A stretch of DNA of 64,000 bases, taken from Burkholderiales bacterium (lineage in GTDB: Bacteria; Pseudomonadota; Gammaproteobacteria; Burkholderiales; Burkholderiaceae_C). A model generated the notes under the pieces. That model was given only the letters and a program-made list of their open reading frames with translations, ran no database searches and was not told the origin of the DNA. The DNA is taken from NCBI GenBank assembly GCA_016702555.1, contig JADJDV010000001.1, forward strand, positions 74,786-138,785, written 5' to 3'. This document shows positions 58,917-64,000 of the stretch, one piece after another. Position 1 is the first letter of the stretch, and each line of letters begins with the position of its first letter. Both the position numbers and the translations under genes were made by a program.

Positions 58917-59011
58917 CAGGGCAGTGATTGGTCAGCGCCCATGACGCGGGCGAACCTTGCACCATAAACCATGCGGATTCGGCGCTCAAGATCCTCCCCA
59001 CTTCCCGTCAT

Positions 59012-59425
59012 TCAAGCCGGCGAGCGAAGCTTCATGGTCGCGATACCCAGCCACAAGCTGGCCACCAGAATCGACAGCGCCCCCACCACCACCAGCACCG
59101 GCGGCAAGCCGAGCGCCACCTTGAGAAAAATCCCGATCGGCATCAGCAGCCCGGCCAGCGCGAGCCACGACACCCACTTCCGTATCGTTTCCGGAAACGG
59201 CAGCTTGAGCAGAAGTAACCCAAACACGATGTTCAAGAGCGCGAACAGGTTGCCGTGCACATGGGCCATTCTGGTCTCGAGGTGGGCGCCAGCCGCGTAT
59301 TCCGCCGCCCACTTTTCACTACTCGGCGAAAGATGCGCCATGTAGATCAAGAAGAAACCAAGCGCCATGAAACCTGCAAGGATGAACAGGCCCGCGGCAA
59401 TGTTGCGTTTTCCGTAGTGCATCAT
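59012..59425 (-). CDS. Hypothetical 4-TM membrane protein with HxH motif
   Basis: GGAG RBS; AHVHGNLFALLN between hydrophobic helices. Confidence 0.75.
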   Translation of the reverse strand: MMHYGKRNIAAGLFILAGFMALGFFLIYMAHLSPSSEKWAAEYAAGAHLETRMAHVHGNLFALLNIVFGLLLLKLPFPETIRKWVSWLALAGLLMPIGIFLKVALGLPPVLVVVGALSILVASLWLGIATMKLRSPA

Positions 59426-59522
59426 GGTTCTCCATGAGCCGTGGCAGCAGTTAGATTCGGCAGTCTGACGTAGAAATCACCGTCCAGTACGACGTCATCC
59501 ATCAGCACCACCAGAATCCGGG

Positions 59523-60191
59523 TTATGCCTTGAAGCCACGCACTATTTTGTAGTGGTCCAACAGTGGAGAAATGTCTTCAGCAAACTCTCGTATGTATTC
59601 ATCGCTTAGACCGATCGACCCCGTGGGGTGGGGGAGCGCAACTATTTGTATGTCTCCGAATTTCTGAATTCCAATGCGAAAGCGCTTTAAAAGCTTTCCT
59701 CCGCTCGTCACATCTTTTTGAAGTATTTGCACCGGGGCTTCAGGACCAAATAGGCGTCGCGCTTTCTCCAGGCAGTTCCGCGAATTCAATGTCCCAAGCA
59801 TTGTTACACTGAGAAAAATAATGAACTTGGGTTGCAGTTGCTGGACATGAAATTCGAAGTTTTCCCACTCGCGAACATACTCAGACGGCAAATGTTTACC
59901 ACGCATGCTCTGGGACTGCGAACTGAGCCAGTTAGTTTGAACAATGGATCGCTCAAAGGGGCCTGCCGTTTCCTCTTTCACTTGTAGAGGATGCCCAAAC
60001 AACTCGAACCACTTAAGCAATTTAGTGCGATAACGATAGTTGTTATAACGTATATCCGAAAAAAAACTCGCAGATTCCTCCTCTGAGGGATTATCTGGAG
60101 AGCCACCCCAATTTATTCCACAAATCATCAGACCGTCTTTCTGATTTTCGAAAAAACTGGCCGTAGGGACATTCAACTTATGATATGACAT
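59523..60191 (-). CDS. Hypothetical protein with uracil-DNA-glycosylase-superfamily-like motifs
   Basis: AT-rich 222-aa ORF; motif-A-like MICGINWGG, QPKFIIFLS, motif-B-like IVALPHPTG. Confidence 0.6.
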   Translation of the reverse strand: MSYHKLNVPTASFFENQKDGLMICGINWGGSPDNPSEEESASFFSDIRYNNYRYRTKLLKWFELFGHPLQVKEETAGPFERSIVQTNWLSSQSQSMRGKHLPSEYVREWENFEFHVQQLQPKFIIFLSVTMLGTLNSRNCLEKARRLFGPEAPVQILQKDVTSGGKLLKRFRIGIQKFGDIQIVALPHPTGSIGLSDEYIREFAEDISPLLDHYKIVRGFKA

Positions 60192-60199
60192 AATAAATT

Positions 60200-60478
60200 T
60201 TAGAGACGGCTCTGCAGAGAATGCCCTCTATTCCATTTGGCATTATATTCTTGATTGACAAAGAACACTTTAAGATCAGCACTGTACTCCTGATTGACCC
60301 AGAAAATTTTTGTTGTAGCCTGATAGTCGTGTGACACATAAAACCATTTTTCGTCAGATGTGGCCTTGTATTCTTGATCGACTACGTAAGCAAGCAGATC
60401 GGCCTTATACTCTTGATCAACCTTGAAGCACTTGACATTAGCTTGATATTCATGATCAACAACAAAAATTTTCGCCAT
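60200..60478 (-). CDS. Tandem ~13-aa repeat protein (DUF6150-like)
   Basis: Six V[DN]xEYxA units; GAGGA-like RBS; 8 nt upstream of the next ORF. Confidence 0.7.
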   Translation of the reverse strand: MAKIFVVDHEYQANVKCFKVDQEYKADLLAYVVDQEYKATSDEKWFYVSHDYQATTKIFWVNQEYSADLKVFFVNQEYNAKWNRGHSLQSRL

Positions 60479-61541: not shown

Positions 61542-61650
61542 TGGCTCATACCGGATGGATTGATGGTAAATACTATTAACAAAGTATGACGCGCAAATGC
61601 AGTATCGGTTGTCATGGATGAGGTAAATCTCAACGGGTGCCTCGAGATGA

Positions 61651-62631
61651 TTATTTTCTTGATTCCGTCCGGCCATGCGTCGACGGCTTCTGCGCGTCCG
61701 GTAACCGCTCTGCCAAATCCCCAAACCCCCGTATCCACCACTCCAGCCGATCCGAGTCGTTGACCGTAGCCTCGACGATCACGCACTCGCCGCCCTCCTG
61801 CGACGTGATTACCTGATCGCGCGACAGCGGCGTGTCGTACAGATGGCTTGCGGCCGCGTGATGCATGCGCAGGCGCAGCCGTACCGGCCCCGTGCTACCG
61901 AAATCCAGTACCCCGCCGTCCAGGAACTGCTCCAGACTGAATCCCGGCGGCGCCTTGAGGTCACCATCAGAGGCGATCCTGACCCGCCGCAGCCGATGCA
62001 GGGCCACGGTGCGTGGATCGGAATAGCCATCGAAGCACACGACCAGATAGGTGACCAGGCCCGTGCGTATCAGGCCCAGCGGGTGCAGTCGCACCTCGCG
62101 ATAGTCCTCGGCCTGGGCACTGCGGTACTCCGCCTCGAGAGGGCGCTCCGTGAACAAAGCCTCGTTAACCGCATCCAGCACGCCGGGTGGTTCCTCGGCT
62201 GGCAGCAAAGGTGGCCCCAGAGGCCGAAACGCCAGCTTCCTGACCCAGCGCGCCGCCTTCGACCCCCCATGGGTTGCCAGGCGCTTGCGGCTTTCCTGGA
62301 ACCACGGCGCCAGCGCATCCCGAACCACCCGCGGCAGGCTGGCGCCCAGTTCCCGTTCCATGAGAGACAGGCCGAGCGCCTGCTGCAGGTCCAGGCTGGG
62401 TGTCAGAGGCAGATGTGATCCAGGGCGCCAGCGCCAGCCATAGGGGCGCGAGCGATCATCACACTCAATGTCGTACGCTGCGGACAGAGCCAGTAGATCC
62501 CGCTCTACCGTCCTGCGGGAGATGTCATAGCCCAGCACCTCCAGGTGCCGGTGGATGTCCTCAGTGGATGCGTGGCGGTTGCGGGGCACCAGCCTCAGGG
62601 TGTCCAGTAGCCGTGGGAAGTTCCTGTCCAT
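61651..62631 (-). CDS. WYL-domain transcriptional regulator (wHTH-WYL-WCX)
   Basis: HTH ISRRTVERDLLAL; WYL-like YRS...LHPLGL....TYLV...RTVALHRL; WCX WWIRGFGD; GAGGA RBS before the ATG at 62631. Confidence 0.9.
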   Translation of the reverse strand: MDRNFPRLLDTLRLVPRNRHASTEDIHRHLEVLGYDISRRTVERDLLALSAAYDIECDDRSRPYGWRWRPGSHLPLTPSLDLQQALGLSLMERELGASLPRVVRDALAPWFQESRKRLATHGGSKAARWVRKLAFRPLGPPLLPAEEPPGVLDAVNEALFTERPLEAEYRSAQAEDYREVRLHPLGLIRTGLVTYLVVCFDGYSDPRTVALHRLRRVRIASDGDLKAPPGFSLEQFLDGGVLDFGSTGPVRLRLRMHHAAASHLYDTPLSRDQVITSQEGGECVIVEATVNDSDRLEWWIRGFGDLAERLPDAQKPSTHGRTESRK

Positions 62632-63691
62632 GTTCCTCGCCCAGATGTTTGAACTCTCGGCTTGCAGCATAAACGTCGGCCAGAGAAACCGCGGATGCAC
62701 CCACTAGGGCAAGCATCGCCGTGACAGTGTCAGCGCTTGTATCGTCCGCGTGCAGATCGGCAACCACGGCCTGCGCCTCGACCATCGACAACTTGCGTGC
62801 GGGCACACAGGCAAAGCAACGACCCGGCCGCATCAGGGCTTCGTCGATGCTGAGCTTGGACGGCAGGTTGGTGGAAAATATCAGGCGCCGTCCATGTGGT
62901 TGCAAGAGTCCATCGGAGACTGCCAGGAATCGGTGCAAGGACCGGTTGCCATCGGCTCGGGGCGTCAGCATATGATCCGCATCCTCGATCACCATGGCAT
63001 CGTACTCATCGGCCATGAACTGGACAAAGAAGCGATCTCCAGCAGCAGACTCCGTGTCTGCTGTATAGGCAATACGCAGCGAGCGTTTACGTAGCCGTGA
63101 GAGACCATTCAGCAGATGGCGAATCAACCGGGTCTTGCCTGTACCAGGCGGACCGTACAGGATCAGCACAGGTGCAGCGGAAGCTTGCGTGAATCGGCGC
63201 GTGAAACCTGCCAGTCCTCCGGGTAGCCAAGGATAGGCCGACGGAAGGAGATGGTCGTCAAAGTACTCCATGATGGAGCTCGAAGTCAGAAAACGTCCGT
63301 CGTGATACCACCATTCCACGGTGGCGGCATAGTGATCTCCAAGCTTAATACCGACCGCGTGCTGAAGTTCAGCAATTGCAGCGGCGCCTGTCCCTGCCGA
63401 GGTAGCCCATAGGTCAATCTCGCATCCCGTCCCAAACCCACGACGTTGCAACTCGATCCGAACGCAAGTGTGCTCGGACTCGCTGATGGTCTGGGTCTCG
63501 CCGATGCGAAAGACCCGCCAGCCAGGCAATGCCGCAACGCGACCGATCACGTCATCGGGCAGGGTGTCGAAGCCGTACTGGAACTTGCGATAAAAGGACA
63601 AGGGCTGCCCAGCTTCCAGAAATCGCATCTGGGCCATGAGCAGGACGTGATCGCCGAAGCGACGGACTTCGTGTGACAGCAGGGAATGCAT
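62561..63691 (-). CDS. AAA+ ATPase with uncharacterised N-terminal domain
   Basis: Walker A GPPGTGKT, Walker B MVIEDAD, sensor STN, SRH DEALMRPGRCF; GGAG RBS. Confidence 0.9.
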   Translation of the reverse strand: MHSLLSHEVRRFGDHVLLMAQMRFLEAGQPLSFYRKFQYGFDTLPDDVIGRVAALPGWRVFRIGETQTISESEHTCVRIELQRRGFGTGCEIDLWATSAGTGAAAIAELQHAVGIKLGDHYAATVEWWYHDGRFLTSSSIMEYFDDHLLPSAYPWLPGGLAGFTRRFTQASAAPVLILYGPPGTGKTRLIRHLLNGLSRLRKRSLRIAYTADTESAAGDRFFVQFMADEYDAMVIEDADHMLTPRADGNRSLHRFLAVSDGLLQPHGRRLIFSTNLPSKLSIDEALMRPGRCFACVPARKLSMVEAQAVVADLHADDTSADTVTAMLALVGASAVSLADVYAASREFKHLGEEHGQELPTATGHPEAGAPQPPRIH

Positions 63692-63735
63692 GTAGGGCTC
63701 CGGTTGAATATCCGATCAAGTCTCAACCAATCTTG

Positions 63736-63750
63736 CGACAAACTCTGTCG
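63736..63750. promoter_or_regulatory. Palindrome CGACA-N5-TGTCG upstream of the ATPase-WYL operon
   Basis: gcgacaaactctgtcga, about 45 nt upstream of the ATPase start. Confidence 0.5.
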
Positions 63751-64000
63751 ATGTCGGCAAGTGGCGGGCGGCCTGCCGAGTCCGCTGGTTGTGCTGATGG
63801 CACCCGCTGCGCAGCAGACCGCGACGGCGCGGCAGGTCGATGCGCTGCCGCTCTGACCATTGTCTTGACGGCTTCTTGCGCCTGCGGCGCAAGCACTGAA
63901 CGCGTTTTTCCTCGAACGTGCCGCCGCCTCAAGACGATCGGCCCGGTTCGCCACCAGCCTGCACGCCGGGCTCTAGAATTCAGGCTGTTTGCCGTTTTTC

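Follow-up and report, generated by a model that had tools for sequence, protein, structure and literature searches.

The right end of the DNA stretch analysed here, 64,000 nt of a Burkholderiales bacterium (GCA_016702555.1, contig JADJDV010000001.1, positions 74,786 to 138,785; hereafter the window), is occupied by a low-GC accessory island of about 5.1 kb that carries six genes. This island is a mosaic of genes, probably acquired horizontally, in four independent units: a pair of genes encoding a Bcs1-like AAA ATPase and a transcriptional regulator with a WYL domain, a cassette of genes for a DUF6150 repeat protein and a 222-aa protein, a gene for a Cys-repeat protein and a gene for a membrane protein. 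Within this mosaic, the AAA-WYL pair would be regulated in a manner similar to that known for DriD, the WYL-domain activator of the SOS-independent DNA-damage response of Caulobacter crescentus. Since a palindromic candidate operator in front of the AAA gene tracks the WYL gene and has the same core as the DriD box, and since DriD is the closest solved relative of the WYL-WCX half of the regulator, the sequence comparisons indicate that a DriD-like sensor most likely has the AAA ATPase as its dedicated target.

The island extends from 58917 to 64030, ending 30 nt past the window, and its limits were set by the GC profile, by comparison to relatives and by the position of the next core gene. 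On the left, it is flanked by the core gene uvrB (open reading frame (ORF) at 56778-58916, minus strand), which is 92-97% identical to uvrB of relatives. When computed in 500-nt windows, the GC content was 0.64-0.72 up to position 58750 and 0.58 at 59000, reached its minimum of 0.38 at 60000-60500 and then ranged from 0.51 to 0.66 up to the window end, while that of the whole window is 0.67. The values of 0.38-0.58 are confined to 59000-61750, and from there to 64000 the GC content is 0.57-0.66. The initial annotation was thus right in placing a GC drop directly after the start of uvrB. It had also taken the island to continue past the window edge, and here the flanking DNA gave a different picture. 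In 20 kb of sequence from C1:131000 (L001), in which genes were picked by third-position GC and a Pfam scan, the ATG of a class I/II aminotransferase gene is located at position 7817, equivalent to window position 64031. Core genes resume at this position, which marks the island end, and the gene order on the right flank is aminotransferase, dnaB, rplI, rpsF, a gene for a TPR/YfiO-like protein, tolB and an ABC exporter gene. The six island genes fill the intergenic space between uvrB and the aminotransferase gene.

Apart from the 5' end of uvrB, a DNA search with the island yielded no match in 30 relatives, and the island genes have no paralogues elsewhere in their own genome. In the same-genus relatives G008 and G003, uvrB and the aminotransferase gene are divergent and about 125 bp apart, i.e., the site is empty. 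Other relatives carry different genes in this gap: a McrBC restriction system in G010 (L101, G010:C1:2430000-2438000), a MazE/PIN pair (VapBC) together with an MFS transporter and an AraC regulator in G015 (L099), and a DUF4186 gene in G018 (L098). The uvrB/aminotransferase gap is a variable genus-level hot spot for accessory genes, and the location of the island next to uvrB is incidental. With regard to the insertion mechanism, no tRNA, no convincing border or flanking direct repeats and no Rfam RNA family were found at the island, and its scanned ORFs did not include a recombinase.

Of the island words sampled, 74-97% were present in 20 wastewater or sludge metagenome runs from 8 studies. 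Contigs from four such runs, which belong to different studies, tile the island and both junctions at near-identity; a metagenome contig of 4678 nt runs from uvrB into the AAA gene, and one of 3875 nt runs from the central spacer into the aminotransferase gene. Since independent metagenome contigs tile it, the island is not mis-assembled, but genuine. A joint in a contig of run X1, which skips 5107 nt (L001 2857 to 7965), was considered as a trace of an island-free strain and was dismissed, since 22 letters fit on one side (90% likeness) and both of its ends lie within coding sequence instead of at the island borders.

All six genes described by the initial annotation (AAA, WYL, repeat (DUF6150), uracil-DNA glycosylase (UDG)-like, membrane and Cys-repeat ORFs) are present. 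Their grouping into one undescribed defence or stress system, in which the WYL protein would act as the sensor controlling the five other genes, did not hold. The adjacency of the six genes in a low-GC island, at a hot spot with defence genes in relatives, fits such a system, as does the stable retention of the whole island in wastewater populations (at least 8 studies). However, the units differ in strand and in GC content: the cassette has 0.43, the Cys-repeat gene 0.52, the WYL gene 0.65 and the AAA gene 0.59, as compared to 0.67 for the window. To check for co-occurrence, the AAA, 222-aa and Cys-repeat families were followed into other contigs, and the fetched loci were searched with all six island proteins. 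None of the fetched loci contained two units together, which is the outcome (random accretion) that the initial annotation had named as refuting a common module. Moreover, the candidate operator is present upstream of the AAA gene only, and its strict motif does not occur in the other intergenic regions of the island. Scans of the six proteins against PADLOC, NCBIfam and PHROG matched no known system, in line with the initial annotation, which had recognised no named one; the matches in PADLOC-DB v2 were generic CRISPR-associated WYL models and P-loop-sized fragments (MkoA, IetA, TRIP13 and others), none of them a full-length system. Since the units do not co-occur elsewhere, they do not form a single six-gene defence module, and a common system of all six genes is very improbable. 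As to the antiphage-island setting that had been suggested along with it, the location at a hot spot with McrBC or VapBC in relatives was borne out. A defence role of the AAA-WYL pair is a possibility suggested by gene neighbourhood.

The AAA-WYL pair is encoded on the minus strand. The Bcs1-like AAA ATPase (376 aa; 62561-63691) matched PF00004 with 35.5 bits (cut-off 21.2), and its gene overlaps that of the putative HTH-WYL-WCX transcription factor by 71 nt (62561-62631). The latter gene (61651-62631) lies within an ORF of 349 aa (61651-62700) and encodes 326 aa from the ATG at 62631; GAGG is located just upstream of this start, and the resulting N-terminus, MDRNFPRLLDTLRL, is conserved. The overlap suggests that translation of the two genes may be coupled. 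The conserved tail of the AAA protein, HGQELP..GH, is encoded by the DNA that, in another frame, specifies the N-terminal helix of the WYL protein (62561-62631). Thus, the tail is conserved because the same DNA encodes the N-terminus of the WYL protein. Metatranscriptome contigs with at least 97% identity extend over the WYL gene and the overlap and represent the AAA gene in part; their coverage across the overlap fits co-transcription of both genes.

The closest relatives of the AAA protein (40-50% identity) are likewise adjoined by a WYL/WCX gene. The same gene order with an AAA/WYL overlap of 53-71 nt was found in L086/L087, L088 and L002. L004 and L089 contain a WYL gene, a DUF2779 gene, the AAA gene and a gene for a protein of about 227 aa; other linked arrangements occur in L012 and L150-L157, and in L005 a WCX remnant is located beside the AAA gene. 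When the neighbours were clustered all against all, in 26 and then in 105 loci, WYL was the only family that recurred across diverse loci. A third conserved partner of the AAA protein was sought in the same clusterings and rejected, the remaining neighbour clusters being synteny among related genomes. Genes downstream of the pair are non-homologous between loci, with the exception of L004 and L089. AAA and WYL are a conserved, physically coupled and mobile pair. The DUF2779 protein (about 490-505 aa) stands beside the pair in three loci (L004 3270-4784, L089 4426-5907 and L150 9466-10941), although not in the window, and may represent an optional third component.

The regions upstream of the AAA genes cannot be aligned otherwise, and one palindrome is common to every WYL-linked locus. 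In the window, this candidate operator is located at 63736-63750, reads CGACAGAGTTTGTCG on the minus strand and ends 44 nt upstream of the AAA ATG. In its strict form, CGAC[AG]-N5-[CT]GTCG, the motif precedes the AAA start by 50-125 nt in all 11 WYL-linked loci tested and, with the window included, is present in 12 of 12. It was found upstream of the AAA gene in none of 96 WYL-less loci. The comparison set came from a metagenome scan for closer relatives, in which the matches listed belong to a distant, mostly WYL-less clade. The 3.77-Mb genome contains 2 sites of the strict form. The other one (G000 contig C6:551982-551996, ATACGACACATTTTGTCGTAT) matches the published DriD consensus perfectly and is located 43 nt upstream of a truncated DnaB-N-terminal-like ORF that adjoins an IS3-type transposase. 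This site may be a second target of the island regulator or a relic of another mobile element.

The operator core is CGAC-N7-GTCG with an AT-rich spacer. The core of the DriD consensus, ATACGAC(X)7GTCGTAT, is the same, and DriD homologues use CGXC(X)7GXCG in their own promoters (PMC10853764). As in the case of DriD, the site in the window lies in the promoter of an operon that encodes the regulator itself, and both proteins have a WYL-WCX half, which in the window regulator is preceded by a putative HTH. The WYL domain of the window regulator (PF13280) scored 43.2 bits (cut-off 21.8) at residues 174-242 of the 349-aa ORF and its WCX domain (PF25583) scored 33.7 bits (cut-off 23.9). The putative N-terminal HTH gave weak matches alone (HTH_Tnp_Tc3_2, E 0.015; Fur wHTH, E 0.16), and R40, R44, L46 and L49 are invariant in its RRTVxRDL helix. 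When a profile of nine regulators was compared to PDB, the best solved relative of the WYL-WCX half was DriD (E 1.4e-9), followed by PafBC, with CapW as a marginal match (E 0.18). DriD is switched by single-stranded DNA (ssDNA) bound between its WYL and WCX domains, with contacts by Tyr168, Arg178, Tyr192, Lys202, Arg204 and Trp206 (PMC9186387). In an alignment of hidden Markov models, the WYL-motif Tyr and the equivalent of Arg204 align with the invariant residues Y195 and R207 of the window family. By analogy, ssDNA is the leading candidate ligand of the WYL regulator.

The window regulator also differs from DriD. It is encoded on a mobile island in another proteobacterial class, and its gene is linked to that of a Bcs1-like AAA protein, whereas the genes under the control of DriD are didA, recA, recJ, bapE and dnaG. 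BrxR and CapW, the WYL repressors of BREX and CBASS, are similar in that they bind inverted repeats upstream of the unit that they control and are found in defence islands, as are several relatives of the AAA-WYL pair. In contrast to them, the island contains no BREX or CBASS component, and the match to CapW was just the marginal one given above.

Several observations weigh against DriD-like control of the pair. First, the N-terminal 75 residues of the WYL protein found no DriD chain in a profile search. Since the HTH has no detectable similarity to that of DriD, the shared operator core could be convergent, and the WYL protein is not filed as a DriD orthologue. Second, the set of ssDNA contacts is kept only in part: the positions of Lys202 and Trp206 are unconserved in the alignment and hold Asp and Leu or Val. 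Third, the DNA between the operator and the AAA ATG gave no match to a sigma-70-like promoter, which fits activation and repression alike. Fourth, about 90% of the AAA family have neither a WYL neighbour nor the operator. Thus, the regulator is an add-on and does not define the role of the AAA protein. Finally, the depth of the metatranscriptome contigs was low (2-9), and DNA carry-over is possible.

On balance, the following scheme is proposed. The WYL regulator, as a relative of DriD and PafBC, would most likely bind CGAC-N7-GTCG as a dimer, immediately in front of the promoter from which two genes are expressed as an operon, that of the Bcs1-like AAA ATPase and then that of the regulator itself. 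The signal would probably be ssDNA that arises when DNA is damaged or when a phage or plasmid replicates, and the AAA ATPase would be the induced output of the regulator. BREX, CBASS, CRISPR and the DriD regulon of Caulobacter are known to be gated by WYL regulators, and the genes gated are usually recognisable effectors. In the libraries and literature searched, no earlier description was found of a Bcs1-like AAA gene as a putatively WYL-gated gene.

A stress or conflict function in the broad sense, induced by a nucleic-acid signal, is the likelier interpretation of the AAA-WYL pair. The initial annotation had taken the WYL regulator as a sensor and marker of a defence or stress module for the whole island. 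For the AAA-WYL pair, the narrower notion of a WYL regulator that marks a conflict or stress unit is supported: the comparison to DriD was apt, the pair has a DriD-type operator, and it is often located beside restriction-modification (R-M), toxin-antitoxin or reverse-transcriptase genes. It does not apply to the six-gene set.

In a narrower version, the pair would be an anti-phage system of the abortive-infection type, in which phage replication intermediates such as ssDNA activate or derepress the regulator and the accumulating AAA protein disables a phage or host complex. Five of nine informative WYL-linked loci adjoin recognised defence or toxin-antitoxin genes. The conflict genes around these copies are an MmeI-type R-M system and PP2C (L086), a type I R-M system, a Mu-type transposase and an NYN gene (L088), a type I R-M system, a D5 primase and an S1/P1 nuclease (L004), HipA and PIN/RHH (L089), and GmrSD and a reverse transcriptase (L150). 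The recurrence of the DUF2779 protein beside the pair in three loci and the rare and patchy occurrence of the AAA family, which was detected in 5 genomes among 400 others from the order, point in the same direction. WYL repressors of defence systems are known to respond to restricted infection (PMC13622015). Yet this evidence is one of gene-neighbourhood association, L002 and L012 are located among metabolic genes, and most of the AAA family has no WYL gene. Furthermore, no PADLOC model was matched over its full length, the window copy has no recognisable effector domain (nuclease, pore or NADase), and the closest full-length structural relatives of the AAA protein are phage proteins, a finding that is just as compatible with a function in phages or mobile elements. 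An anti-phage system of this type is, therefore, possible, although rather unlikely.

Alternatively, the AAA protein could be a partner that remodels or loads the WYL dimer, and the pair could control variable neighbours as cargo, in the way in which BrxR and CapW regulate the systems next to them. Downstream of the pair, the genes do vary by locus (those of L004 and L089 being homologous), and translational coupling through the overlap would provide a fixed stoichiometry. On the other hand, most family members lack a WYL gene, so the AAA protein works without it; the operator invariably precedes the AAA gene; and the WYL gene of the window is followed by a convergent gene instead of a co-oriented one. 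This alternative appears improbable, and the AAA protein as the induced output of a DriD-like regulator remains the preferred reading.

The AAA protein is predicted to begin with an alpha/beta domain of about 165 aa, which is followed by an AAA core and a short lid (AlphaFold model, predicted local distance difference test (pLDDT) 86.8). Walker A (GPPGxGKTR), the ED-x-D Walker B region, the sensor-1 Asn and DEAL-x-RPGRC are invariant in 30 aligned family members, with G180-T187, E236, D237, D239, N275 and R288-R291 as the invariant residues. Among PDB entries, the model best matched Bcs1, the heptameric AAA protein that translocates the folded Rieske protein in mitochondria, in full-length alignments of about 375-415 columns (Foldseek E 2e-12, template modelling (TM) score 0.42-0.49). 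Both proteins share a two-domain layout, with an N-terminal alpha/beta domain (a predicted one in the window protein) and a classical AAA domain with an RPGR arginine-finger region. Unlike Bcs1, the window protein is bacterial and cytosolic and has no match to Pfam BCS1_N, and the TM score is just 0.42-0.49. Residues 1-30 (MHSLLSHEVRRFGDHVLLMAQMRFLEAGQP) contain no hydrophobic span, and the model has a soluble helix at 12-26; thus, neither the sequence nor the model contains an N-terminal membrane anchor. The protein would be a ring-forming protein remodeller or translocase.

Better full-length structural matches of the AAA model were found among predicted viral proteins (BFVD), the best being an AAA protein of an uncultured Caudovirales phage (E 2e-23, TM score 0.66). 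The BFVD matches include proteins of the large phages Pectobacterium CBB, Acinetobacter ME3, Ralstonia RP12 and Campylobacter F374, as well as giant-virus proteins annotated as BCS1. PHROG 14322 matched residues 151-322 with E 6e-37. Phage tblastn matches cover the AAA core only, and a plasmid search with the AAA protein gave no match. These predicted structures suggest that the bacterial AAA family may be of viral origin or may have viral counterparts. The family comprises at least 801 proteins of about 350 aa, which are mostly unannotated.

The second conserved pair of the island is the cassette of the DUF6150 repeat protein gene (92 aa; 60200-60478, minus strand; PF19647 with 80.5 bits, cut-off 27) and the gene for the 222-aa protein (59523-60191, minus strand), which follows 8 nt downstream. 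In front of each of the closest 222-aa homologues (59-61% identity), at a distance of 2-10 nt, there is a DUF6150 gene for a protein of 92 aa (62-71% identity; L102-L105). One copy of the cassette is located between yajC and tgt in a metagenome-assembled genome of Methylophilus and another one after a pseudouridine synthase gene, and the DNA homology between copies ends exactly at the two ORFs. With GC contents of 0.385, 0.344 and 0.431 (window) in hosts with 0.503, 0.415 and 0.673, respectively, the cassette was always more AT-rich than its host. The DUF6150 and 222-aa genes are a conserved pair that forms an AT-rich mobile cassette. No homologue of the 222-aa protein was found within 1.5 kb of more distant DUF6150 genes, and more distant 222-aa homologues lack a DUF6150 gene. 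Since distant DUF6150 genes do not stand beside 222-aa homologues, the pairing is specific to this subfamily.

A Pfam domain is absent from all 58 homologues in the family of the 222-aa protein, and the window protein itself matched neither PF03167 nor any other Pfam family. Its AlphaFold model (pLDDT 90.2, predicted TM score 0.89) is predicted to have the alpha/beta fold of the UDG superfamily, since the top 50 PDB matches in Foldseek were all TDG, MUG, UDG4 or UdgX (best E 7e-7, TM score 0.5-0.6). This agrees with the label UDG-like given by the initial annotation, for which the model found its best matches in TDG, MUG, family-4 UDG and UdgX. The motifs CGINWGG and LPHPTGS are conserved, the PHP His being invariant and the GINWGG Asn nearly so, as is a block FERSIVQTNW. 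We take GINWGG to occupy the position of the GINPG-type motif of family 2 (motif A) and HPTG that of HPS in families 1 and 4 (motif B). In its predicted fold the protein resembles UDG families 2 (MUG/TDG) and 4; in contrast to the known families, it has the FERSIVQTNW block and a DUF6150 partner. It counts against the UDG assignment that a profile of 29 homologues found no solved UDG in PDB. It is plausible that the 222-aa protein excises bases from DNA and acts together with a small partner protein, and it is a reasonable hypothesis that this partner would be an inhibitor, an antitoxin or a specificity factor of the putative glycosylase.

A homologue with 33% identity is encoded on small mobilisable Acinetobacter plasmids (19 records), with a macro-domain gene 8 nt after it and a Doc toxin gene nearby; plasmid pOCUAc18-5 of Acinetobacter baumannii is an example (L190, 3014-4272). 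The plasmid homologue has a sub-threshold match to PF03167 (E 0.005), and the macro-domain neighbour suggests a possible link to ADP-ribosylated nucleic acid or protein. Other distant homologues are found on Sphingobium conjugative plasmids near an antirestriction gene. On one metagenome contig (L106, 5001-5705 and 6044-6712), tandem UDG-fold paralogues without DUF6150 are located near a WYL/WCX regulator and a PD-(D/E)XK gene.

The cassette could be a toxin-antitoxin-like or anti-phage pair, in which the predicted glycosylase would excise normal or modified bases and be restrained by the repeat protein. The arrangement of a small upstream gene 2-10 nt from a larger downstream gene is in line with this, as are the transfer of the pair as a unit into at least three chromosomal contexts, the UDG-like predicted fold with its conserved PHP His and GINWGG Asn, and the macro-domain, Doc toxin and antirestriction genes near the plasmid homologues. 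However, no toxin-antitoxin model of PADLOC or Pfam was matched, and, DUF6150 apart, neither of the Pfam, NCBIfam, PADLOC and PHROG libraries assigned the cassette to a known toxin or antitoxin family. The distant members of both families, moreover, occur unpaired. Such a function is conceivable, but doubtful. The same modest weight is given to a more far-reaching pair of proposals: that the AAA-WYL pair would be a mobile ssDNA-triggered immunity or stress module of a new class, in which a DriD-type sensor switches on a cytosolic AAA protein that disables a phage or host complex, with the phage AAA look-alikes as its source or as a counter-measure, and that, separately, the cassette would represent a new UDG family, a toxin or anti-phage base excisor with its own inhibitor.

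The two remaining genes are unrelated cargo. The secreted or periplasmic Cys-repeat protein is encoded on the plus strand (61065-61541; the ORF opens at 61023, with a likely ATG at 61065) and consists of six 23-aa repeats with two cysteines each, visible as 69-nt periodic repeats in the DNA. It has 37 homologues with variable repeat number, and their neighbourhoods are unrelated (L107-L109), containing EamA and DUF1800 genes or a serine-recombinase element. The membrane protein (137 aa; 59012-59425, minus strand), in whose sequence four hydrophobic segments and an AHVH motif can be recognised, belongs to a small family of unannotated proteins with 156 cluster representatives of about 135 aa. 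It had no match in Pfam, PADLOC or PHROG, and it is absent from all of the 30 relatives although its gene has a host-like third-position GC of 0.78.

A non-coding spacer of 544 bp (60479-61022) with low-quality ORFs only separates the divergent DUF6150 and Cys-repeat genes. It contains a single promoter-like match (minus strand, 60763-60791), has no Rfam match and is covered by metatranscriptome contigs. On the right flank of the island, at L001 17180-18228 (window-equivalent 73394-74442), an IS630-type transposase is encoded in two ORFs (HTH_33/HTH_29, then DDE_3), which is probably a frameshifted or programmed-frameshift insertion sequence.

Taken as a whole, a low-GC island may resemble one system and yet be a patchwork of unrelated units, and the gap between uvrB and the aminotransferase gene is marked as a site where this wastewater genus has a hot spot of accessory and defence genes. 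For a protein family without an assigned function, the AAA-WYL pair provides a putative triplet of regulator, operator and target that is directly testable. If the WYL regulator does act at this operator, the DNA-recognition code of DriD would extend beyond the chromosomal regulons of alpha-proteobacteria to mobile islands.

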